This document shows, piece by piece, positions 11,300-29,421 of a stretch of DNA of 64,000 nt. Source of the DNA: Candidatus Micrarchaeia archaeon. Lineage in GTDB: Archaea; Micrarchaeota; Micrarchaeia; CAILAH01. Location of the stretch: contig JAVZCB010000004.1 of NCBI GenBank assembly GCA_038874595.1, positions 32,001 to 96,000 on the forward strand, in the 5' to 3' direction. Every line of letters starts with the position of its first letter. Within the stretch, counting starts at the first letter, position 1. The position numbers and the translations under genes are program-made. The notes beneath the pieces are model-generated. The model worked only from the letters and a program-made list of their open reading frames with translations, was not told the DNA's origin and searched no databases.

Positions 11300-13435
11300 A
11301 TGAGACGTGCATTTATCCTCCTGCTGCTTATCGTCTCGTTGGGGTGGAGCTTTAATATACAGGAATATTTAAGCCCTAATGAGAGTGTCAAGAGTGTAAC
11401 CTATCTAGATATGGTTGGCCCTGACGGTGCATACGTGATGTATTATGTTGACAACGAGCCAATAATGCTAGTCAAGGGAGACCAGATTGTCGAGAATAAA
11501 GAGATACTAGTTGCCGTGCTTGAAGGATACTTCTTTAATAAGGATTTTCCAAAGGCAAGCGAGTTGCAGGAGATACACGAGAAGTGGCTGGAGTTCAATA
11601 AGTCCAGGTCATACACATTCAATAATGAATACGTACGGGAATTTTACCCCCCTGAAAAGTATTGCAAGCAGCTTACCGGCCTTACGGTGAGGCACTGCAA
11701 TAAAAACGAGACAAACTTCCACCCCTGCATTACATCCTGTGGTGCTGTGCCTATTTGCAGGGGCAGTATACTTGAAGGAGGCATCACATCCCTGCAGAAA
11801 ACAACAAGAGATTTTCTTGATGGAATTATGAGCCTTGATGACGAAACAATGAATTTGGACAGGTATGGCTCCCAAATTAGCGAAATTACGGAGAAGCTTG
11901 AAGGCATAAAATACTCTAATTACAATGCCCAGACGCGCAAGGACATTGAGGTGCTTGTTGCTGCAATGGAGGGGATAGAGGTTTCTGCAACTAAGATTGA
12001 AAATAATATACTGTTCTCAGACTTGTTGCCGGCTGCTGGGCTACAGCCATACTGCGGCCCAACCAATTACTCAAAAGATGCACAGGCATGGCTCACTGCA
12101 AAGGCCAAAACAATAAAAAGCAGGACATATAACCTGTTCCATGTTGATTCTATCGCGACAAGAGTTCTCGAGAAAACTGCACAAAGGAAAGAGTTAAAGG
12201 ATAAAATGAAGACGACAAACGAGTACAGCTCAAAGTTCAACAGGATTGATGGGATATACAATGACCTTTATGCAAAGTATGTCAAAGTGAGCAAGTATGT
12301 GAAAGATGATACGCTTACAGGCGATATTGAAACATTACGCGCAAAAAAGGATTCGGTGCGGGATGACATTTACATTGGCAATTATAACCGGGCCGACCTA
12401 ACCATAAAGCAGTTTGATGTGCTTGCGGAAACTTTCTCTTCAAGAGTAAATGAGTATTATAACAAAACAAACAAAATCGACGAATACAAAACACTTGCAG
12501 ATAAGAAATTCATAATGGCAGAGTGGGATATTGAAGCCACAAATATATTCCTAGGCCAGCAGTTGCAGGATGCAAAAGCAAAGAGGACTGCACTTGATGA
12601 GAGGCTTGCGGCAAAGATCGACCCGGAAGAGCTTGATATGATTATCCAAGAATACGAAGAAATCATAAAAGATGTAGATGAGATTATAAAAGCAAAAAGG
12701 GAGCACGCTTTAGATACAATAATGAGCAAGGTTGTTGCGGCCTCAAACTCATACTCAGATATGTTGGCGTCTGCGTATGCGGGCGCTAATGAAGGGAGCT
12801 TCCAGCAAAGGAGACAGGTACGCGAGTATGTGCTTCCTGCAACGCTTGTTGTTGTTGACTTGGTTGCAATAGGAATATTTATAGCCGCATTCGTGTATAT
12901 GGTCGGCTCAGGCAGGATACGCCTGAGAAAGATTGCTGCTGTGCTCTGGTCTTTCATATTCATAGCATTCTTTATGGCCGTTGCAGGGAGCTCAATCGCT
13001 TCTTATATGCTTATTGACCAGAAAACCAATAAGGCCAGTTTTGATTCGTTTTATACATATGTGGTTGGTAGCGATTCGGCCGTGATTGTGATTGATACAA
13101 AAAGCGGTAGTGTAAATGAAGAATGTGCACGGGAGCTTAAATCAACAATGGAAAGACAAATGAACAAAACAGTATACCTGTATAAATATACGCTTGAGGG
13201 GTGCGAGCTTGTTGATTACACCACGGGTGCGAATGTAACCGCGAGCTTAAATGAGAAAAAAACCGTTGATGCGTGCGAAGAGAGCATGGGGCAGATGCCG
13301 CGTGTGTTCATCAAGTCTGCACAAGAAGATTCAACAACATTCTCTGTCAAGTATTATCCAAGCGCAACGATTGCGGGCAGCCCTGATTATATCCAGTTAT
13401 GCCTCCTGAATACGATACTTAAAGAGGGACAGTGA
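11300..13435 (+). CDS. Hypothetical membrane protein: signal peptide, Cys-containing domain, long coiled-coil, two TM helices, C-terminal alpha/beta domain
   Basis: Architecture read from the translation. The C-terminal domain resembles the downstream 166-aa protein. Confidence 0.8.
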   Translation: MRRAFILLLLIVSLGWSFNIQEYLSPNESVKSVTYLDMVGPDGAYVMYYVDNEPIMLVKGDQIVENKEILVAVLEGYFFNKDFPKASELQEIHEKWLEFNKSRSYTFNNEYVREFYPPEKYCKQLTGLTVRHCNKNETNFHPCITSCGAVPICRGSILEGGITSLQKTTRDFLDGIMSLDDETMNLDRYGSQISEITEKLEGIKYSNYNAQTRKDIEVLVAAMEGIEVSATKIENNILFSDLLPAAGLQPYCGPTNYSKDAQAWLTAKAKTIKSRTYNLFHVDSIATRVLEKTAQRKELKDKMKTTNEYSSKFNRIDGIYNDLYAKYVKVSKYVKDDTLTGDIETLRAKKDSVRDDIYIGNYNRADLTIKQFDVLAETFSSRVNEYYNKTNKIDEYKTLADKKFIMAEWDIEATNIFLGQQLQDAKAKRTALDERLAAKIDPEELDMIIQEYEEIIKDVDEIIKAKREHALDTIMSKVVAASNSYSDMLASAYAGANEGSFQQRRQVREYVLPATLVVVDLVAIGIFIAAFVYMVGSGRIRLRKIAAVLWSFIFIAFFMAVAGSSIASYMLIDQKTNKASFDSFYTYVVGSDSAVIVIDTKSGSVNEECARELKSTMERQMNKTVYLYKYTLEGCELVDYTTGANVTASLNEKKTVDACEESMGQMPRVFIKSAQEDSTTFSVKYYPSATIAGSPDYIQLCLLNTILKEGQ

Positions 13436-13932
13436 TGAAGAAAGCCAATAACAGCACGTTTACAAAGCAAATCCTGCTTGTAATTGCTGCCATACTTGCA
13501 GTATCAGCAGTATATTTGCTATGGAGCGTGGGTGAAAAAGAGGATTATGGTGGGGAGCTCGTGCTAAGTGATAAGCAGATTAGCAATTATGAAGGGGCCT
13601 TCAAGCTTGCTGATGGGAAAAGGATTGCAATCGTAATGGATACGAGAGGGCTTACGCAGGAAAACAGAGTGTCGGTATACCAATGCGGTGTTGGGTTTGC
13701 ATCATCGCTTGCCCGTATCGGTAAGAACATAACTAATTTTGCCATTGAAGATAGTGGATGCTATGGGCCACTTAACAGAACGAGCATAACGAAATGTAAT
13801 GAGCTCATCCATGCTGAGGATTACATTATCCTGCTTAAGGGCGGTGAGCCAGATGCAAAATATTACGAGGACCACCTGCTTGTCATGGTCCCACAAAATA
13901 ATACGATGGAGTGCGGTGTGAAAGCAAAGTAA
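13432..13932 (+). CDS. Hypothetical membrane-anchored protein, paralogous to the C-domain of the upstream gene
   Basis: N-terminal TM helix, start overlapping the upstream stop, shared Cys spacing. Confidence 0.75.
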   Translation: MMKKANNSTFTKQILLVIAAILAVSAVYLLWSVGEKEDYGGELVLSDKQISNYEGAFKLADGKRIAIVMDTRGLTQENRVSVYQCGVGFASSLARIGKNITNFAIEDSGCYGPLNRTSITKCNELIHAEDYIILLKGGEPDAKYYEDHLLVMVPQNNTMECGVKAK

Positions 13933-16585: not shown

Positions 16586-17836
16586 ATGCAAAAGATGTAT
16601 TTGGCATTGCTGATTATCTTCGTGTCTTTAGTACAACTTGTGGGTGCTGCGGTTTGCGTGTACGAGCCACGGCTCAATGTGTCCTCAAGTTCTGTGACGA
16701 CATTATTCCCACACGCTGGCGATAAAATAGCACTGCAAGCACTGCTGCAAAGCGATGAGTTATATGCTGGCGTGATGGAAATCTATCTTAGAAAGGGTGA
16801 GTTGAAATACCCGCTGGCAAGCAGGGAGATATACATCGTTCCGGGAGATAATAAGATATCTCAGGAGTTAGAGCTTCCAAGGATGCTTGCTTCTGGTGTT
16901 TATGAGCTCAATTTAAGGATTGGTGGGTTTGTATATAAGTTGCCTTTGATTATTAATGGGAGCGAAACAGAAGATAAGGTATTTGTAAGCGAGGATATGG
17001 GGACGCTTGAGGTTATTGCTTTAACAGATACGCCTGTAATTGTTGTGCAGGAAATCGTGTTCGCAGATGGCAGGCGCGCGAACAAGGAGTATTCGGTTAC
17101 ACCGGTTAATAATACTGCTGTAATAAGGGAGATGGCTTGTGATGACTGTCTTCAGAGAATCAAGATAAGTAACAATGAGTTGTGGGCAGTCATTGAAAAA
17201 ATATATGGGGTTTATGAAGAGCCATACGCAAAGGTTATTGGGCTTAAAAAAGATAAGTTAGAGCTTGAGGTGTGTGCACCAGGAGAGTATACTGTATACA
17301 TAAATGGTGAGAATAAGGGAAAGATGAAAAACAAAGGGGACATTGAAACTGAATTGCAGAGCGGTTATGAGAAAGTGAGCCTAATATTATATGGAAAAGG
17401 GGAGATACTTAGCAAAGGGATTGACCTTGGCGAGTTCAGGGATGAGAATGCTAATATCTCAGTGAAGGTTATTGCACAGCAGCCGTTTACGGTGCGCCTC
17501 AGCGCAATGGATAGGTTTGGAAGGGAAGTGCTGAGCACAGGTGAGATAGAGATTATAGATGAGAGTGGGAATACGTTTTATGATAAGGTATCATTCGCGG
17601 GGAGCACAGAAAGGAAGTACAACTTGGCGGAAGGGAGATATATTGTAAAGTACAATGGTGTAAGTACAACGGGGTCTGCGGTGCCTGAACCGGCCGTTCC
17701 TTTACCACAAACTCAGCCAAAATATGAGCTTGTCCCAGCCGACCTTGTACCGGTTATTGCAGCTGTCCTGGTGCTTGCAGTGGTGGTTGCCATATTTGCC
17801 TTGATGAAGATGAAGAACTGGAGAAGAAATGTTTAA
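16586..17836 (+). CDS. Secreted multi-Ig-like protein with C-terminal TM anchor
   Basis: Signal peptide, beta-rich repeats (G.Y.L/V), Pro-rich linker, TM helix and basic tail. Confidence 0.75.
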   Translation: MQKMYLALLIIFVSLVQLVGAAVCVYEPRLNVSSSSVTTLFPHAGDKIALQALLQSDELYAGVMEIYLRKGELKYPLASREIYIVPGDNKISQELELPRMLASGVYELNLRIGGFVYKLPLIINGSETEDKVFVSEDMGTLEVIALTDTPVIVVQEIVFADGRRANKEYSVTPVNNTAVIREMACDDCLQRIKISNNELWAVIEKIYGVYEEPYAKVIGLKKDKLELEVCAPGEYTVYINGENKGKMKNKGDIETELQSGYEKVSLILYGKGEILSKGIDLGEFRDENANISVKVIAQQPFTVRLSAMDRFGREVLSTGEIEIIDESGNTFYDKVSFAGSTERKYNLAEGRYIVKYNGVSTTGSAVPEPAVPLPQTQPKYELVPADLVPVIAAVLVLAVVVAIFALMKMKNWRRNV

Positions 17837-17863
17837 ATACGAAGAAAATGAAAATTTGGATGT

Positions 17864-19840
17864 ATGCTAAGGAAAGAGGAGGTAAAATGCTGGTTTCGCG
17901 AGCAAAAACGCAAGTGGAAAAGCTTCGTTGCAGTTCCACTGTTAGCGGCCAGCATCATGGCTATTGGGCCTACTGTTTCACACTCACAGGAGGTAATAAG
18001 GATGAGTAGTAATCAAGCATTAAAAACTCCTATATCGAAAACTAAAGAAACTGCTGAAATTGTGCACGAGAATTCCTACAATGTTCTAAACTCCATAAAT
18101 GCTACTGTTAATTCAACTGAAACGGAGAGGGTACTGGGTGCACAATCATTGAAAAACCTTGTAAACAGGTACGGGAAAAAAGATATCATAAATGGATTAA
18201 ATAGACTTAAGAAGAGTGGAAAAATCAACGAAGAAGAATATAATAGGCTTGTTGAAATTGCTAATGAGATTGATTATGACAGGATGTACAAGAACGTTGT
18301 AACAACACAGAGTTTGAAAGTTGGCGGCAAATCTGAGAAGGTTGATGCAATAAAAGACACAAGCGTCCTGCTTGATAAAGAGATAAGGGATGTTGTATGT
18401 TTTGTATACCTTGTTTCAATAATAAGCATCCCTGAAATGAAAGAGGTACCGCACCCTGAAAAAAAGCTTTACTTTACAGCTCATACTCAGGATACTAAGA
18501 ACGCCGAAAAAATAAAAAAACAAATTGACGATGTGCAGAGTATTTATAACACGCTCCTATCAGATAAAATTTCGGAGATTAATTACCTTGCAATCAGGGG
18601 AAAGCAAGCATATCTTTTTTTGCAAGGATATCCACCACTTGGCTTACATATTGACTTTGAGCCGCTTTATTCAATTGCGGGCAGGCTTAAGCCTCCTGAA
18701 ATAGGAGATGTACCTCTTCAAAGTGATCCACAAGTGGAATATTTTGGGAAGGAATACAAAGACAGAATAAAGAAGATAGGTAATAACTACTATGTTTCTG
18801 GGAAGTGGCTGTATACAACACCCGAAGGGCGCGAGGCGCTCAAAGGATATTTCTCACAAGGCAAATGGGAGATTGGTGGAATTAAAAGCACTGATAAAGA
18901 TGCATCTAAAAAGCTGTTCGAACTAGTTGAGAAAACGGCCGGGACGTATGGTTATGAGAAAACGATGGCGTGGCTTGAGGAGCATTACAAGCAAGGTAAA
19001 ATAACAAATGAGCAGATGCAGATGATTGAGCCGCTGGTCCGTGTTGTTGATGAGATAAGGAAACGCATTGTGAGTATGGCTTACGAGTCAACTAAAGATA
19101 TTATGATGTTCTATGCAGGTGGTGAAAAGCGATTCGAGCTGAGACCTATTGGAGGCTCACAGGCAAGTATAACTGTTGGAGGCGGTGCTTACTATACAGC
19201 ATTTGAAGTGTACGATGAAAAAAATAAAGCGGTTGTGGGTACTTTATACGTGCGCGGCGAGTTACAATGGGAGAAATACAGCGGCTTAGCGGTACAGTTC
19301 CAGGTGTTTAATGATTTCGGCTTGATGCAGGATAACAAGAGCATTGTTGATGCGAGTGCACTTGCTTTTGGAGCGGAATTGAGCGAGCAGGTAGGGAATA
19401 GACTTGCACTTAAGTTTGGATTAGGTGGGCAGGTGGCACTAACTGCACAAAACATATACACAAGTGGAGGAGTTACGTGGTACCCAAAGAAAAATATGCT
19501 ATATATTCAGGAGGTTGGCATTGGACCGAAGCTGTCCCTCACAAACATAGACGTTGAAAATATACTTAAAAACCAGGGATTCACACCGGAGTTTGCAGGT
19601 GCGATGGGTAATGTTATCCCTCCATATTTATGGAAAGCTGGCATTCCTGTAGATATTACATTTGGTGGCAAAAATTGGAAACTTGAGTTATCATCAGAGG
19701 CAGGATATATGCTTCTTACAAATAAAGACCTTAAAGGAATTCCTGAAGGGGGAAAATTCTACTGGGGCGGGAGTGCTGGTGTAGAGATTAACCTCTATGA
19801 AGATTGGGTTATTAACCTAAACATCTCGGTTTACAAATAG
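17864..19840 (+). CDS. Secreted protein with SHOCT-like helical repeats and a C-terminal putative transmembrane beta-barrel
   Basis: Signal peptide, then ~11 Gly/aromatic-rich amphipathic strands at the C-terminus ending INLNISVYK. The CDS is certain; the fold is inferred. Confidence 0.65.
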   Translation: MLRKEEVKCWFREQKRKWKSFVAVPLLAASIMAIGPTVSHSQEVIRMSSNQALKTPISKTKETAEIVHENSYNVLNSINATVNSTETERVLGAQSLKNLVNRYGKKDIINGLNRLKKSGKINEEEYNRLVEIANEIDYDRMYKNVVTTQSLKVGGKSEKVDAIKDTSVLLDKEIRDVVCFVYLVSIISIPEMKEVPHPEKKLYFTAHTQDTKNAEKIKKQIDDVQSIYNTLLSDKISEINYLAIRGKQAYLFLQGYPPLGLHIDFEPLYSIAGRLKPPEIGDVPLQSDPQVEYFGKEYKDRIKKIGNNYYVSGKWLYTTPEGREALKGYFSQGKWEIGGIKSTDKDASKKLFELVEKTAGTYGYEKTMAWLEEHYKQGKITNEQMQMIEPLVRVVDEIRKRIVSMAYESTKDIMMFYAGGEKRFELRPIGGSQASITVGGGAYYTAFEVYDEKNKAVVGTLYVRGELQWEKYSGLAVQFQVFNDFGLMQDNKSIVDASALAFGAELSEQVGNRLALKFGLGGQVALTAQNIYTSGGVTWYPKKNMLYIQEVGIGPKLSLTNIDVENILKNQGFTPEFAGAMGNVIPPYLWKAGIPVDITFGGKNWKLELSSEAGYMLLTNKDLKGIPEGGKFYWGGSAGVEINLYEDWVINLNISVYK

Positions 19841-19845
19841 GTGGT

Positions 19846-21936
19846 GTGATGAGAAAGCTTGCCTTTGTACTGGTCGTTGTGCTCTGGTGTGCTGTGCTAC
19901 TATACGGGGCAAGCGAAAGCAAGAGCCGCACATATACGATGCCTGATTATAGCATTTACTCGATGAGCTCTGAAATCACGCAAGTAATCAATGCAAACAC
20001 TGCAAAAATAACAAGTGATAAGATATGTGCCGGGGATTCTAGGAATTTGAGAGAGTATGTTGATTATGCAGTTACACAAAATACTCATGTAATAACGCAT
20101 TGTGACATTTCAACATCTACGCTGGATTGTGATAAAAGCAAGTATACAATCGTAGGTGAAGGTATTGCGAGCACGGCTGAAGTAATCTCTGAAAACGAAT
20201 ATAACATCCTCAAGAATAGCGGGTTGAAAAGGTTTACTGCATATGGGGTTTTAACCCAAGGCGAAAAGAATGTTGTTGATGAGATCTCGGGCTCGAGATA
20301 TGGCGGTGCACATCTCGCAAGGATGGATATTGATGGTAAGATATGTACGGGATGCACACACATAAAATATGCAAAAAGCCGTGGCGGGCTTGGGTGTACT
20401 GGAACTTACAAAATAACTGTTATCGGGCCTGATGGAAGCACTGCTGCTGTTTATGAAGGGCCTCTTGAAGAGTTTGCCGAGTCAACTAAAAAGATTAATT
20501 ATAAGTTTGATAGGGCAGGGCAGTATACTGTGAATTATGAAACAGCTGTAAAAACCTGTGTAGGCATACTGAGTGAGGAGCCAATAGGTGGGACACGGGT
20601 TATACATCCTTTCTTTGACCCATCTGGTTTGTACTTGCCATTCGTGATTAAGGAATCTGTCAAGCTTGATATCCTAAGCGGTATTAACGTTCCTGACATC
20701 ATTCCGTCACAGGGAGTGATTGATAATGAGATTGACCCGTCAACGGGTAAAATAGTGCCAAAAACACTCACAGAGAATAAGCAGGATACGTTTACTTTAA
20801 GGTTCAGCCTGTCAAACCCACAGGATAGCAGCACAGATATGAAAATCACATCTATAAGCTGGCCGTTAGATGCTACAAGTGATACTAAAATTGCAAAGCT
20901 CAAGATAGATAATGCTGTTATAACACCAAGTGTTGGAAGTGGTATCACGCTCAAGCCAGGCCAAACGCTTTCCGTTGAGATTAAAACAACAGCAACTGCC
21001 CCAAAGGGGTCGGTTGGGATGCATACCTTGAAGGTTGATTACTCATATGATGCAACAGCTATTGGGATATGTGCAAGCGGTGCGAGCGAGAAACGCGGTG
21101 GAAGTGTATACGCAACAATACAAGTGTTGCCAGAAAACGTTCAACCGCAGGATAATTTAGGGGTAACTGTTAGGGTAACGCCGCCTTTAATAAACACTAA
21201 TAACTATGAAAAGGTAAACAAGGATGGTGTAAAAGTAGACGGATATGTACTGCTGAACCCTGGTAAAGATAATATTGGTGTTGAAGGTGCAAACGTAACC
21301 CTATGGAGTATTACAAAACACTCCAGGAAAATTAATAGTGGAAAACCGCTAACATCCACCCTTTGTTATCTGCCACCTGAAAACAACAAAATGGTAAAAA
21401 CGGATAAGAACGGCTACTATGACTTTTCAAATGTGCCTTTGACTTTATGTAAAATTGGTGGTGACGAGGAAGGGTTCCTTAACGCCACTGTAACTGCAGA
21501 GTATGCAATGCCTGGGAAAGCACCGTTGCGTACACAGCCCACTTCCGGAGGCTCAACCATAAGCACGCCTATCCCGGACCCAACGTGCACTCTTACATAC
21601 AAGAGAAAAACTGGGAATGTTGAGACATACGAGATTACTGTTAATATAAAGAACTGGAAAGATGGGTTTGTTGTAAACACTGCTGGCGGCAAAGAGAAAG
21701 GCAGTTACGATTGTGGCAGTGGCGGGGGCCCGGTAACAACTGGTATCAGAGGAAGCTTAAAGGGCGAGAACCCTACACTTACATTTGAATGCTCATACGG
21801 TGCAGAGCTTACACCGGAGATGTCGCGCGTGGTTGTGTACGGGTTGGATTACAAAAAAACCAATGACCAGAGAGCGCCATTTACAACTATGGTGTGCAGG
21901 GAAAAAATCGGGATGTGTTACGTACAGCTAGGCTAA
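19846..21936 (+). CDS. Secreted multi-domain beta-sandwich (Ig/CARDB/carboxypeptidase-regulatory-like) protein
   Basis: Signal peptide; Thr/Gly/Cys-rich beta strands; motifs FDRAGQYTVNY and VEGANVTL...KTDKNGYYDFSNVP. Confidence 0.75.
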   Translation: MMRKLAFVLVVVLWCAVLLYGASESKSRTYTMPDYSIYSMSSEITQVINANTAKITSDKICAGDSRNLREYVDYAVTQNTHVITHCDISTSTLDCDKSKYTIVGEGIASTAEVISENEYNILKNSGLKRFTAYGVLTQGEKNVVDEISGSRYGGAHLARMDIDGKICTGCTHIKYAKSRGGLGCTGTYKITVIGPDGSTAAVYEGPLEEFAESTKKINYKFDRAGQYTVNYETAVKTCVGILSEEPIGGTRVIHPFFDPSGLYLPFVIKESVKLDILSGINVPDIIPSQGVIDNEIDPSTGKIVPKTLTENKQDTFTLRFSLSNPQDSSTDMKITSISWPLDATSDTKIAKLKIDNAVITPSVGSGITLKPGQTLSVEIKTTATAPKGSVGMHTLKVDYSYDATAIGICASGASEKRGGSVYATIQVLPENVQPQDNLGVTVRVTPPLINTNNYEKVNKDGVKVDGYVLLNPGKDNIGVEGANVTLWSITKHSRKINSGKPLTSTLCYLPPENNKMVKTDKNGYYDFSNVPLTLCKIGGDEEGFLNATVTAEYAMPGKAPLRTQPTSGGSTISTPIPDPTCTLTYKRKTGNVETYEITVNIKNWKDGFVVNTAGGKEKGSYDCGSGGGPVTTGIRGSLKGENPTLTFECSYGAELTPEMSRVVVYGLDYKKTNDQRAPFTTMVCREKIGMCYVQLG

Positions 21937-24062: not shown

Positions 24063-25592
24063 CTACCGCTCTAATATCTCCTTCAACGGGACGCCCTTCT
24101 CAACCGCATCAAGCAAAGATTCCCTTGAATTATAATATTCTGCAACCACCCTGCCAACGTGCTCAACATCAACACAGCCCTGCTTTATCATATAATTCAG
24201 CACTTTTGATTTTTCATTTATATCTGCGGATATCTCCTTCTGTGTCATTCCTGTATAAAGGCTGAGGCGGTCAGCAAGTGAGGATATTTCATCCACTTTG
24301 TCAATCCTGTCGTTTCTGGGGTTCCACCTGTAAATTACCCTGTGCCTGCCACGGTCATCAACCTCTGCAACCTCAAACGTCCTGCGCAGGCCGGTACGCC
24401 TGTTCCTGTATTGCACAACTATTAAGTCCAGCGCTCCCAGCATAGATTGTGGGATATCCACAGGCGGATTGGTCAAACGGGATATCGTTTGCTCCGCGTT
24501 ATCTGCGTGTAAAGTTGCAATTACAGAGTGCCCCGTGTGCATCGCCTCAAACAGGATTTCTGCTTCACGCTTACGTCTAACTTCACCAACTATAATCCTG
24601 TCAGGGCGCATACGTAACGAGTTCACGAGCAGGTCAAGCATCTTTACCTCACCTTTCCCTTCAGGGTTTGGAAGCCTTGTTGAAAGGGGAACCCATTGCA
24701 GGAAGGATGGGAGATATATCTCACGTGTATCTTCTATGCTTATTATGCGCTGGTTAGGTGGGAATAGATTTGAAAGCGCGTTTAGGAAAGATGTCTTACC
24801 GCTACCCGTACCCCCTGAAACAAGTATTGACATCTCGTTCTGGATGCTCAGCCATAAGAGTGCCATAACCTCTGCGGATACTGTTGATGACTGCACAAAC
24901 ATAGTTGGTGTCCATGGATTTCGCGCAAATTTTCTTATTGTAATGGTATTGCCATTAGTGGAGATTGGGAAGAGTGTTGCATTAACACGGTCACCTGTTG
25001 ATAAGCGTGCATCCATAAGGGGATTGAGCAGGTTAATCTGCCTGCCAACACGGCGCCCTATGGCAGCAGCATAATCCTGCACCGTTTTCTCTTCTTTCAG
25101 CACAACGTTTGTAATGCACCAACCATACTTCTTATGGAAAACCCATATGGGCTGGCCTGCACAGTTTACTACGATTTCCTCAAGGTTCTCATCATGAAGG
25201 AACGGCTCCAAATCACCCAAGCCAAGTGTATACTGCATAAGGTACGCTGAGAGAATTTTCAGGTTCTCGGGCGGCAAATTAGGAAAATGCCTGAGTAAAA
25301 CTTTTGAAGTCTTTGAGAAGAACTGGTCGCGCACATACTTGCTCTTCTGGACATCAAGCATCTCTGATATATCAATGTTTACTTCGCCAACAAGCTCACC
25401 GCGTATTTGCGTATCTAATATAAGCCTTGTCCCTTCCGCAAGACCTGGGATTTTAATCGAGTAGTACGGGACGTACAAATCTGGCCTGTGCGATATCTGC
25501 ACCTCCATGGCCATGCCTTCAACATTAAGTTGATAAGTATCAACCGCGCGCACCGCACCACTGTCATTGTTCTTCTTTCCGTTTTGGACCAT
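24063..25592 (-). CDS. Type II/IV secretion / Tad pilus assembly ATPase (CpaF/VirB11/ArlI family)
   Basis: Walker A GGTGSGKT, Asp box SIEDTRE, LRMRPDRIIVGEVR and His box MHTGH...TLHA. Confidence 0.93.
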   Translation of the reverse strand: MVQNGKKNNDSGAVRAVDTYQLNVEGMAMEVQISHRPDLYVPYYSIKIPGLAEGTRLILDTQIRGELVGEVNIDISEMLDVQKSKYVRDQFFSKTSKVLLRHFPNLPPENLKILSAYLMQYTLGLGDLEPFLHDENLEEIVVNCAGQPIWVFHKKYGWCITNVVLKEEKTVQDYAAAIGRRVGRQINLLNPLMDARLSTGDRVNATLFPISTNGNTITIRKFARNPWTPTMFVQSSTVSAEVMALLWLSIQNEMSILVSGGTGSGKTSFLNALSNLFPPNQRIISIEDTREIYLPSFLQWVPLSTRLPNPEGKGEVKMLDLLVNSLRMRPDRIIVGEVRRKREAEILFEAMHTGHSVIATLHADNAEQTISRLTNPPVDIPQSMLGALDLIVVQYRNRRTGLRRTFEVAEVDDRGRHRVIYRWNPRNDRIDKVDEISSLADRLSLYTGMTQKEISADINEKSKVLNYMIKQGCVDVEHVGRVVAEYYNSRESLLDAVEKGVPLKEILER

Positions 25593-25600
25593 AATAATAC

Positions 25601-26788
25601 TTACCTCCGCTTTTCCTTTTCCTCCCGCAGCTTCCTCATAAGGTCAATCAGCTCCTGGCGCTTCTGTTCCATCATAGTTACATCACGCTTTGTCTCCTTT
25701 ATCTTTTCCTTTGCCTCCTCAAGTTTTCCGCTGACTCCGCTCACAGCAGTTGGGGATACCTCTATCTTTATCGCCTGCAATTCACGTATAAGCAGCTTTA
25801 GCTTCTTGTCAAGCCTCTCCTCCTCATCTTCCAGCTCAGCAAGCATATCCGCAATCCTCTTTACCTCAGCATACCTGCGCGCAATTACATCCTCGCTTAT
25901 CTTGCTCTCAAGCACCTCAACATCCTTGCTGAAATCGTTTATCGTCTTGAGTGCAAGCCGCATCTCATCAAGCCGCTTCTCAAGCGTTTCATTAAGAGAG
26001 GAATACATCTGGCTTACACTTTCAAACTCCTCACGAACATTCTTTATCTCCTGGTCAAACTTGCCAGTGCTCAATTGCGAATACGTTGCCAGCCGGGTCT
26101 TAAGCGCCTCCTCCTTCTCAGAAAGGTCTGAAAGCTCAGAATCTATCTCATCTTTCTGCTTTTGCAAAGTCTCACGGAGAGCGCGCACCTTCCTGAGTGC
26201 ATCATCATAATTTGAGACAAGCGTTTCCATAACCGCCGCATCCTGCATATATGAGCTTTCTGCCTCCTTAAGCTGCACGCTGTACTTATCCATCCTCTCC
26301 TTAACCTTAAAGGCCATCTCCTCAAGGTCATGAACCATTACTTTTGCTTCTTCGTTTGCCTTCTGCCCTTCCTTCTTGATTTCATTTAAAGTTTCAACCG
26401 CTGCCCTAACCCCCTCACTCACAGAAGATAGATTACCTATAATTGAGGACAACTTTTTGCTGGATTCCTTTGACTCCGCCAAAAGCCCTGCAATGCGGTT
26501 TGAAAGCCCTTCCAGCTCAACAAGAAGCGAATCACGCTGCTCACGCAGCTCTTTTACCTTTTCAGGCTCAGTCACTGACTCCCCAGCCCATACAAGGTAT
26601 GCTGTTGTAAACTGGTATTCAATCTTGATTATCCCTTCCTCTTCAAGTATATGGGACCATTCCTCAATTACCTTCTGGGCAATGCCAAGCTCCTTTGAGG
26701 CGCGTTCAAGCGAGACACGTTTATTCTTGTAAATAAGGTTTATGAGCTGATCAACACCTGTGCTTATCAGTGAATCTACGTATGCCAC
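25601..26788 (-). CDS. N-terminal winged-helix plus long coiled-coil protein
   Basis: TGVDQLINLI..KRVSLERASKELG...IEEWSHILEEEGIIKIEY followed by ~320 aa of heptad-rich sequence. Confidence 0.8.
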   Translation of the reverse strand: MAYVDSLISTGVDQLINLIYKNKRVSLERASKELGIAQKVIEEWSHILEEEGIIKIEYQFTTAYLVWAGESVTEPEKVKELREQRDSLLVELEGLSNRIAGLLAESKESSKKLSSIIGNLSSVSEGVRAAVETLNEIKKEGQKANEEAKVMVHDLEEMAFKVKERMDKYSVQLKEAESSYMQDAAVMETLVSNYDDALRKVRALRETLQKQKDEIDSELSDLSEKEEALKTRLATYSQLSTGKFDQEIKNVREEFESVSQMYSSLNETLEKRLDEMRLALKTINDFSKDVEVLESKISEDVIARRYAEVKRIADMLAELEDEEERLDKKLKLLIRELQAIKIEVSPTAVSGVSGKLEEAKEKIKETKRDVTMMEQKRQELIDLMRKLREEKEKRR

Positions 26789-26952
26789 AAAATGTATTTG
26801 GAGAAATTTAATATAAATCTACCATATGCTCGCAGCCCGCGGCCGCGCACTCAGTCACATATATTTATATGTTTCCTATTTGATGGGCCACTAAGGGAAT
26901 ATTATTATTATTTAAAGGTTTTGAGAAATATATCCTGCAAGCTATAGAGGGA

Positions 26953-27240
26953 TTGCCAATGGAATATACAAAAGAGGACCTTATGGGGGTTATTCCTATA
27001 AAAAGTGCAACAAGTGGCTCTGCATTCACAAGGGTTAAGCAGCAAAGGGCAATATTTGACAAGTTTGGTGCAGAAGGGGTTTCAATCTATGCATCAATCA
27101 ATGGTAAAAAAAGCGTTGAGGAAATCCGTGCTGATTTGAACATGACTGCAAGCAGAATCGTTGAGATACTTGAGTTCATGGAAAGGGAAGGTGTGATACA
27201 GCTAAAGACAATTTTTGAGATTGAGTCGGAAAGGAACTAA
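26953..27240 (+). CDS. Single winged-helix-repeat protein
   Basis: KFGAEGVSIYASINGKKSVEEI...EILEFMEREGVIQL; the same unit repeats in the next gene. Confidence 0.75.
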   Translation: MPMEYTKEDLMGVIPIKSATSGSAFTRVKQQRAIFDKFGAEGVSIYASINGKKSVEEIRADLNMTASRIVEILEFMEREGVIQLKTIFEIESERN

Positions 27241-27255
27241 GCGGAGTTCTGATGT

Positions 27256-29421
27256 ATGATGCCTTCTGAAATAAGGATTACATTGGGAAAAATGGACCAA
27301 CTATCGCAGTACAAGCTCAAGTTAGAGGTTAGTAAAAAGTTTGGAAATGACGGCCTTAAAATTTATAACTTGCTTGAGAAATCAACTGATTTTGAGCTCC
27401 TGCGCAAAGGCGCCGGGCTTGATGATGACAGGTTGTACAGGATACTTGCTTTCATGGCCCGTGTAGGGTTGATTAGTGTAGAGGGGCTACCAAAAAAATA
27501 CCTGGAGGAAAGCCCTATTACAGAAGGCTTGGTTGTTGGTGTTGCACCTGCCGAGTCACTTATGCGTTTCAGGCATCAAAAGGCGCTTTTCAAGGAGTTC
27601 TCTTCAGATGGGATTAAGGTTTACGAGTATATTCGTAGCACTGAATCCACATTTGACAGGATTTCACGGGACCTTGGGATTGAACCAGAAAAAGTAAAAG
27701 AAATCCTGGACTTTATGATATCAAATGGTATTGCGTATTCAAAACAAGTAAGCCCCGCAAAGGCCCCAGAAAAAGAGTTAGAGAAACCAAAAGAAACAAT
27801 TGAAGAGGCAGCACTGCCTAAGGCCAAGGTGGAAGAAAAGATTTCTTTGGAAACCAAAAAGCCGCCTGCACAACCAAGCGGAAGGGAGATGGCAAAAGCA
27901 GCACAGCCTCCTGAAACTATCCAAGAATTTAGAAGTGAAAAAGCTATTGATGAAAGTGCTGAATATAGGATTGCAGATTTACCGCTTGCTGAAAGATATA
28001 ACATACAAAAAGAGATGCTTGACAAATTTGGCGCGGACGGATTGAAGGTTTATTCCTTGTTTACCATCCCTTCAACTGTTGCTAAGGTCGTGGAGCTTTC
28101 AGGAATTAGCAGGGAAAGAGTAATAGAGATTGCCGGAAAAATGCTTGAGAAGAAATATCTGACTACTAAAGAGAAGGTTATAACAGGTGAAGAAAAGCAG
28201 CTAGCGGAAAGGACCACAAAAAAAGAAGAGGCGATGCCAGAGGTACCAAAAGAGAAAACGATTGTTGAAGAGAAGAAGATAGAAATTAAGCCTGTTGAAT
28301 TGGAAAAAGAAAAGGAAGAAAGGCGTGTTGAGACTAAGGAAAAAACCAAACCTCTTAAATACGAAGAGAAAGAGGAGGAAATCAAACCCGTTGAGCTTGA
28401 AGAGGGAGAAAAGCTACCTGAGATTGAAGAGGAGATAACACAGCCAGAAACGGAGGAGAAGGAGGAGTTGCCAGCTGAGGAAGAGGAGGAGATTCAACCC
28501 CCGGAAGAAGAGGTGGAGGAAAAACCTGCTGGTGAAAAGGGAGAGGAAGAAATTCAGCTCCCGGAGATAGAAGAAGAAATAACCGCTCCAGAAATAACCG
28601 AAGAAGAGAGCGAAGAAAATAAAGCACCTGCTAAAGAAGAGCTCAGCCAATTTGAGAAGATAATAAAAGATGAGTACGGCTCCAAGGGACTTCTTGTGTA
28701 CAGGCTTATAGATGGCAAAAGAACTGCTGAAGAGATAATGAAAGAGGCAAATGTGGATGAGGAATTCATAATAGAATTTTTCGGCTTCCTTGAAAACAGA
28801 GGGATTATCAGGCTTGAGAAACCTAAGGGTGAGCAAGTCAAGGAGGAAATTGAAACAGAAGAAAAAATGCCTATCTCTGAAAGTTTTGCTGCACAGCCAC
28901 TCACTGAGAATATTAAAGTTCCAAAGAAGGAAATCATAATACTTGATGTTATCCCGCTCGATGTCCCAATCCTGCAAAAGATGCCATTGCCTGCAAGGAT
29001 GTCGCTTGAGGCAAAACTTCTTGCAAAGTTTGGGCCGCGTGCGCTCAGGATACTAAACAGGATTGATAATGAGAGCGATATAGTAAAAATTGCCATAGAG
29101 AATGCAATAGACCTGGATGAGCTTGATGAGATTTTATACGCGATAAGCAATAGCGGTGGCTGCACGTTTGCGACGCTCAGTGAAGATGATATAAAGAGGA
29201 GATATGGTGATGAAGCACTAAAAATATATAAGAAGTACGGGCGGGAAGGCGTAATCATATATGAACTTATAGGCAAAATGGACTCGCTTAAAAAGATGGT
29301 TTCTTTTGCAAAGGTTGACCCAAAGAAAGCTGTTGAAATTATTGTGGACATAAACGAGTTGCTCGGTATAGAAGGAGTAACAAAGAAGGACCTGTACGCG
29401 GAGCTCGGGCTTCGGGAGTAG
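27256..29421 (+). CDS. Multi-winged-helix repeat protein with acidic low-complexity linker
   Basis: About six K-F/Y-G-x-x-G-h-x-h-Y units and a Glu/Pro-rich linker. Confidence 0.8.
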   Translation: MMPSEIRITLGKMDQLSQYKLKLEVSKKFGNDGLKIYNLLEKSTDFELLRKGAGLDDDRLYRILAFMARVGLISVEGLPKKYLEESPITEGLVVGVAPAESLMRFRHQKALFKEFSSDGIKVYEYIRSTESTFDRISRDLGIEPEKVKEILDFMISNGIAYSKQVSPAKAPEKELEKPKETIEEAALPKAKVEEKISLETKKPPAQPSGREMAKAAQPPETIQEFRSEKAIDESAEYRIADLPLAERYNIQKEMLDKFGADGLKVYSLFTIPSTVAKVVELSGISRERVIEIAGKMLEKKYLTTKEKVITGEEKQLAERTTKKEEAMPEVPKEKTIVEEKKIEIKPVELEKEKEERRVETKEKTKPLKYEEKEEEIKPVELEEGEKLPEIEEEITQPETEEKEELPAEEEEEIQPPEEEVEEKPAGEKGEEEIQLPEIEEEITAPEITEEESEENKAPAKEELSQFEKIIKDEYGSKGLLVYRLIDGKRTAEEIMKEANVDEEFIIEFFGFLENRGIIRLEKPKGEQVKEEIETEEKMPISESFAAQPLTENIKVPKKEIIILDVIPLDVPILQKMPLPARMSLEAKLLAKFGPRALRILNRIDNESDIVKIAIENAIDLDELDEILYAISNSGGCTFATLSEDDIKRRYGDEALKIYKKYGREGVIIYELIGKMDSLKKMVSFAKVDPKKAVEIIVDINELLGIEGVTKKDLYAELGLRE

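Follow-up and report, generated by a model that had tools for sequence, protein, structure and literature searches.

Does an archaeon of the Micrarchaeota encode a transmembrane beta-barrel and, if so, which membrane would it enter? Such barrels are considered characteristic of diderm bacteria and their organelles and are classed as Omp85 clients. An initial annotation of 64,000 nucleotides of micrarchaeal DNA (the whole stretch analyzed, here called the window) had proposed an outer-membrane-type barrel protein, seen as a pore either in an archaeal outer membrane or in the membrane of a host. The open reading frame that it described, with the strand motifs that it quoted, is present (Table 1) and is also uninterrupted in an independent assembly from another study, the sole difference being one synonymous change. 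The source genome was sampled from a hot spring (918 kb, 93.5% complete), and genomes of the same genus carry the label Candidatus Micrarchaeota. Contamination or a bacterial insert is ruled out by neighboring archaeal housekeeping genes (aRF1, primase large subunit, translin, NMD3, S8e), by a genome contamination of 0.05%, by a GC3 that deviates from the genome mean by less than one standard deviation and by family-wide synteny. The open frame is a genuine archaeal gene. Separately, only 5 tRNA genes were found by ARAGORN in the whole source genome, a low count that probably results from non-canonical introns or unassembled copies.

Table 1. Features of the barrel locus and of the surrounding window.
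Feature	Position in window	Strand	Basis
Cassette gene 1: 416-aa secreted beta-rich (Ig-like) protein, C-terminal membrane helix, basic tail	16586-17836	+	ORF, synteny
TATA-like box, 32 nt 5' of the signal-peptide ATG	17832-17839	+	Sequence, leader comparison
Barrel gene (cassette gene 2)	17864-19840	+	Single open frame, 658 aa
Predicted extended Sec/SPase I-type signal peptide, residues 1-41	17864-17986	+	Conserved h-region and cleavage motif; third-position bias
Overlapping -1-frame ORF, 40 codons, own GGAGG site, ends across the internal start	17887-18009	+	Leader comparison
Helical N-terminal domain, residues 42-381, no recognized fold	17987-19006	+	AlphaFold2 secondary structure
Internal Shine-Dalgarno-like GGAGGT and in-frame ATG (Met47)	17989-18004	+	Leader comparison
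Long helix, residues 382-408, leads into strand 1	19007-19087	+	AlphaFold2; present in all orthologues
Predicted 12-stranded amphipathic beta-barrel domain, residues 413-657	19100-19834	+	AlphaFold2, structural alignment, loop asymmetry
Cassette gene 3: 696-aa secreted unanchored Cys-rich beta-sandwich protein	19846-21936	+	ORF, synteny
S-layer protein gene, 912 aa	58915-61653	-	PF05124, 53.5 bits, above Pfam cut-off

The signal peptide that had been read from the sequence is conserved among orthologues. It consists of a long basic n-region and an h-region, followed by Pro at position -6 and small residues at -3 and -1, and third codon positions account for a disproportionate share of its substitutions (16 of 34 and 9 of 18). 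Motif and conservation together argue for a cleavable Sec signal peptide. Tat export was considered and rejected: an RR pair occurs in four leaders at varying positions, and TatC was not found in the nine family genomes. A TATA-like box lies 30-34 nt 5' of the start in 11 of 11 leaders examined, a position from which the barrel gene would be transcribed as a leaderless message.

All structural evidence presented here is prediction. Using an eight-sequence alignment of orthologues, AlphaFold2 folded residues 405-658 into twelve strands (pLDDT 85.5, pTM 0.78). Structural alignment of this model against 48,161 solved chains gave KdgM as the best match (Z 16.9, rmsd 1.8 Å over 156 residues) and autotransporters at Z 14.8-16.6 (BrkA, Hbp and AIDA-I at Z 16.2-16.6), with NanC, NalP and EstA also matched. 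All 50 structural matches listed are membrane barrels and the best ones are 12-stranded outer-membrane barrels. A separate Atlas model reached TM 0.65-0.69 to an autotransporter, KdgM and DUF481, and an Atlas feature search matched Tsx, OmpG, KdgM and LamB clusters. Strands 2-12 of our model superpose on KdgM 1-196 and NanC 2-191, beginning with the first strand of these porins, while strands 1-11 end on the C-terminal strand of autotransporters; jointly, the two superpositions imply that the modeled barrel closes. Two independent predictors and structural alignment thus support the proposed outer-membrane-type fold, and structure prediction did not return the soluble beta-sandwich that the initial annotation had named as the result that would count against it. 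The strands are amphipathic and rich in Gly and aromatic residues from residue 413 onward (window position 19100), as described, but the model contains 12 of them instead of about 11.

Sequence composition was analyzed alongside the model. The strand count of 10 exceeds that of shuffled sequences (4.8 +/- 1.6, p 0.004); the simple strand counter also ranks helical membrane proteins high and hence was not used for a barrel census. Hydrophobic/polar alternation by column lies above all 500 column shuffles. The soluble Ig neighbor alternates equally strongly, so alternation is not diagnostic of a barrel. One face of the barrel is 74% hydrophobic and 4% charged (the face being picked by hydrophobicity), while Gly makes up 19% of the polar face compared with 2-8% in the soluble Ig neighbor, and Cys is almost missing from the barrel. 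A Gly-rich, Cys-poor polar face is typical of a porin lumen. Superposition and composition together suggest a lipid-facing hydrophobic exterior. At the sequence level, Pfam, NCBIfam and PDB sequences gave no match above cut-off for the barrel protein, neither the KdgM porin profile (PF06178) nor the autotransporter profile (PF03797) matched any member of two family alignments, and a viral fold search returned only weak, phage-borne barrel matches.

In each orthologue of the barrel protein, strands 1-2, 3-4, 5-6, 7-8, 9-10 and 11-12 are linked by short segments (2-10 residues, with one of 13 in the contig L052), whereas long loops, 8-39 residues in length, are found at four of the five even-to-odd junctions. 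This one-sidedness of the tight turns is retained at 14-25% identity. The description of the strands as joined by short turns is accordingly right for the odd-to-even junctions only. The model would put the long loops on one face, along with the N- and C-termini and the helical domain, and the tight turns on the opposite one. Termini and tight turns of bacterial barrels share the periplasmic face. Compared with bacterial outer-membrane proteins, the archaeal barrel is therefore modeled one strand out of register, which resembles a circular permutation by a single strand. When aligned over the full length by Foldseek, model and autotransporters superpose poorly (TM 0.24-0.28).

This topology bears directly on how the protein could reach a membrane. 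BAM clients have their termini on the tight-turn (periplasmic) face, which is not where the model places them. The aromatic residue near the C-terminus had been taken as a beta-signal, a reading that we abandon because in strand 12 the parity of Y657 is the polar one and because the C-termini of orthologues are variable, most ending in K, R or a polar tail. A search for Omp85/BamA (PF01103), suggested by the initial annotation, found none in 9 family genomes or in 301 Micrarchaeota genomes, with positive controls, and neither POTRA nor TamB was found in the 93.5% complete source genome. Since the beta-signal argument fails and no Omp85, POTRA or TamB was found, the barrel protein is not a BAM-type client; a non-homologous insertase is possible.

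The same results can be read as those of a protein that never enters a membrane. It could be a soluble ligand-binding barrel or curved sheet, with a partner or lipid ligand shielding the hydrophobic face, that the predictors bend toward a porin. The equally strong alternation of the soluble neighbor, the missing beta-signal and BAM, and Foldseek TM-scores to porins of at most 0.49 are in line with this. Further, Solan et al. considered it unlikely that archaeal barrel-like sequences form functional barrels (10.1101/2021.02.17.431615). We nevertheless consider a non-membrane protein improbable, given the agreement of two predictors, the rigid fit to KdgM, the restriction of all 50 listed matches to membrane barrels, the Gly-rich polar face and the conservation of one-sided tight turns in strongly diverged orthologues. 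A membrane barrel of some kind is, in our estimation, quite probable.

Ahead of the barrel lies a predicted helical domain for which the best Atlas match had a TM of 0.26, the domain having been searched as part of a larger chain. The initial annotation had seen two SHOCT-like repeats in this region. Only one stretch resembles SHOCT (PF09851) and does so at E 0.12 and 12.6 bits, well short of the gathering cut-off of 27, so that we do not retain this assignment; the second supposed repeat is a conserved helix cap that opens the long helix preceding the barrel. The arrangement of the domains is based on a full-length model (pLDDT 79, pTM 0.60). According to alignment ranges, the long helix coincides in part with autotransporter linker helices, at their outer end, and residues around 256-268 overlap the N-terminal plug regions of FadL-type and COG4313 channels. 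This weakly suggests that the helix lies over the barrel mouth on the loop face and that the lumen is capped by the protein's own helical domain. We picture the barrel as a monomer carrying its helical domain, probably with a capped lumen, which may make it an anchor or a gated conduit rather than an open pore.

Which membrane would such a protein occupy? One answer is that it is a porin or tether of an outer membrane belonging to the archaeon itself, inserted from a periplasm-like space with helical domain and loops pointing inward toward the anchored Ig protein. Fold and topology are equally compatible with this answer, at least two further barrel candidates are encoded in the source genome, and inner and outer membranes have been reported for ARM-1 (PMC8784108). 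This option, the first of the two offered by the initial annotation, is however weakened by the S-layer gene in the window (Table 1) and by a cultured Micrarchaeum, in which an S-layer covers a single membrane (10.1101/2021.04.28.441871). The failure to find Omp85 in 301 genomes also speaks against it.

Regarding the other barrel candidates of the source genome, one (L029:5784-7700, plus strand, equal to G000:C3:95783-97699) encodes 638 residues with a long signal peptide and ends in Trp. It lies 6 nt upstream of a gene for a 1608-aa protein with many Big_1/invasin-like domains, which makes for a parallel barrel-plus-adhesin layout. Another (L028:8438-12643, minus strand, equal to G000:C2:206437-210642) encodes 1401 residues without a Pfam match. 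Its signal peptide resembles that of the barrel family by eye, the profile match (E 0.53) not being significant, and a purine-rich site precedes an internal Met. No homology was detected between the 658-aa barrel protein and these two candidates.

The barrel gene is the middle member of a three-gene cassette. In every family genome examined, cassette gene 1 is found directly upstream, and wherever the contig continues, a gene for a secreted Cys-rich protein of about 690 residues follows; in the window, the gap between the barrel stop codon and cassette gene 3 is 5 nt. The barrel gene occupies the same position in 9 of 9 family genomes, three of its copies having been found by position alone, and is present on four metagenome contigs as well. 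None of the three cassette genes was found in about 300-395 other Micrarchaeota genomes, where fast divergence limits detection, and protein sets of 5.8 billion and 1.8 billion sequences contained family members only, with three relatives. The cassette appears to be vertically inherited and was detected in a single family of Micrarchaeota, a restricted distribution that counts against a porin of the archaeon's own outer membrane. Barrel identity to the query ranges from 14 to 45% among orthologues. In L006 and G001, the whole barrel gene is 24-26% identical to the query while the two partner genes reach 37-44% and the housekeeping neighbors 59-85%, and the barrel gene is the fastest-evolving of its locus.

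Several other observations concern the same region. Four family assemblies are broken in or beside the barrel gene (G007:C12/C9, G008:C13/C7, G003:C8/C30 and G006:C16/C52), which would fit strain heterogeneity at the locus. At window positions 11300-13932 (plus strand), a 711-aa secreted membrane protein with two helices and a 166-aa partner with no Pfam match are encoded in synteny across the family at 43-69% identity. A secretion-type ATPase (PF00437), a coiled-coil protein and a 721-aa multi-winged-helix protein (window 24063-29421) are syntenic with the cassette in several genomes.

Two metagenome contigs, L051 and L052, capture divergence of the locus between close strains. They are 96-99% identical over 10 kb outside one 2-kb block (L051:2460-4445) that cannot be aligned by blastn and in which the replaced sequence starts at codon 141 of the barrel gene and ends at codon 169 of the Ig gene downstream. 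The resulting barrels are 25% identical. Because the first ca. 170 residues of the cassette gene 3 product were exchanged with the barrel, the N-terminal domain of this Ig protein is a candidate partner of the barrel; the co-exchange is a single event for which adjacency alone may account. In a second sample, the segment encoding the same domain carries an in-frame 12-nt insertion at window position 20213. Wholesale replacement between near-identical strains would be expected of an exposed interface under antagonistic selection. It would not be expected of loops that face inward, as they would in an outer membrane of the archaeon itself, and, with the evidence above, we regard that location as unlikely.

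A conserved internal start adds a further possibility. A Shine-Dalgarno-like site followed by ATG or GTG is found a few codons past the cleavage site in 9 of 10 complete leaders, in differing codon phases, compared with a background of 1.3% of source-genome ORFs carrying one between codons 36 and 60. The internal site is also retained, in another codon phase, in L051 and L052, both of which were identified only once the prediction had been made. In L006, the signal-peptide frame is one base off the barrel ORF (L006:6800-6945) and the gene begins at the internal ATG; this reflects either an error in the assembly or a protein that can do without export. Conservation of the site and the L006 offset make a signal-less isoform starting at Met47 possible. 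The overlapping -1-frame ORF (Table 1) has counterparts of 29-40 codons that stop close to the internal start in 8 of 10 leaders. Judging from this recurrence, it is possibly regulatory and may explain the conserved Cys of the signal-peptide n-region, the Cys codon supplying the TG of its ATG.

The barrel might also belong in the archaeon's own cytoplasmic membrane, either as a capped, gated channel or as a barrel anchor that displays the helical domain and its Ig partner. The exported form would be oriented outward, and a signal-less form from Met47 could insert from inside. No second membrane would be needed, outward-facing loops would explain the hypervariability, the lumen is capped in the model, and the internal ribosome-binding site and the L006 frameshift permit a cytoplasmic form. 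Against this, a leak would drain the proton gradient, no native beta-barrel is known from an energised prokaryotic plasma membrane, and a single helix, as found in the upstream gene product, would be a simpler anchor. We hold little expectation that this location is correct.

We tentatively favor a different reading, in which a Sec-exported barrel with an attached helical domain inserts from outside into a second membrane, that of a partner cell, as part of a contact module. The Sec-type signal peptide, whose conservation we show, would export the protein. The C-terminal 245 residues are predicted to close into a barrel the size of KdgM or of autotransporters, one face of which is hydrophobic and the other polar and rich in Gly. 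In the predicted arrangement, for which the conserved loop lengths argue, termini, helical domain and long loops share one face and only tight turns are found opposite. As only these turns would need to cross the bilayer, insertion could proceed from the secretion side without BAM, similar to that of beta-pore-forming hairpins. The helical domain and the loops would remain oriented toward the symbiont and both Ig partners, with the N-terminal domain of the secreted Ig protein pairing with the barrel and the membrane-anchored Ig protein tying the assembly to the symbiont. The least certain step is the target, putatively the partner-cell membrane, where allele exchange would mirror host specificity or evasion. 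A host membrane, the second option of the initial annotation, fits both topology and hypervariability. More doubtful is a fuller version in which a single-chain, circularly permuted porin-type barrel enters the host membrane without BAM and serves there as anchor or conduit of a tripartite contact apparatus. In this version, barrel and cognate adhesin domain would be swapped between strains as one cassette that determines host specificity, and the conserved internal start would yield a signal-less second form.

Comparison with known systems indicates where the archaeal protein departs from precedent. Like the monomeric KdgM/NanC porins (PF06178; PDB 4pr7, 2wjr, 8xua), it is predicted to have 12 antiparallel strands, equal curvature, and tight turns and long loops on opposite faces. 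It differs from them in its 7-8% identity, the one-strand register shift, the placement of both termini on the loop face, the 370-aa helical domain, the missing C-terminal beta-signal and an organism in which BAM was not found. With type Va autotransporters (BrkA, Hbp, AIDA-I, NalP, EstA) it shares an extended signal peptide, an N-terminal domain, a long helix and a 12-stranded barrel. In contrast to these, strand 11 instead of strand 12 matches the last autotransporter strand, BAM/TAM was not found, and, as strand 1 starts out from the loop face, there is no need for the helix to pass through the lumen. Pores of the alpha-hemolysin class and mycobacterial MspA insert from one side, where their termini and soluble mass stay while tight turns cross, and they do not need Omp85. 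These barrels are oligomers of single hairpins, whereas the archaeal barrel is modeled as a single-chain 12-strand meander of compatible topology; neither group is represented among the 50 structural matches listed.

Ihomp1, a pore of the archaeal second membrane in Ignicoccus, is likewise a pore-type protein but is alpha-helical and not a beta-barrel (PMC3422733). The study of the PopA superfamily of Bdellovibrio, an oligomeric porin-like family, contains a tentative remark on a possible porin-like relative in DPANN Altiarchaeales (PMC12228718); we see no link between PopA and the archaeal barrel protein. This was the only mention of a possible DPANN relative in a literature search on archaeal beta-barrel porins that covered few subscription papers, and a search of the same coverage on Micrarchaeota barrels found no paper.

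In conclusion, we describe an archaeal gene whose product is predicted to form a membrane beta-barrel of unusual topology. At 245 residues, the domain is compact enough to be refolded, recorded in bilayers and solved structurally, and the two natural alleles in near-identical strains offer a ready specificity test. If our interpretation is true, an inherited, one-strand-permuted archaeal barrel without detectable Omp85 would represent another route of barrels into membranes. It would also provide a molecular handle on the question of a second membrane in Micrarchaeota, where published accounts differ (PMC8784108 versus 10.1101/2021.04.28.441871), and on how DPANN symbionts attach to their hosts and tap them.
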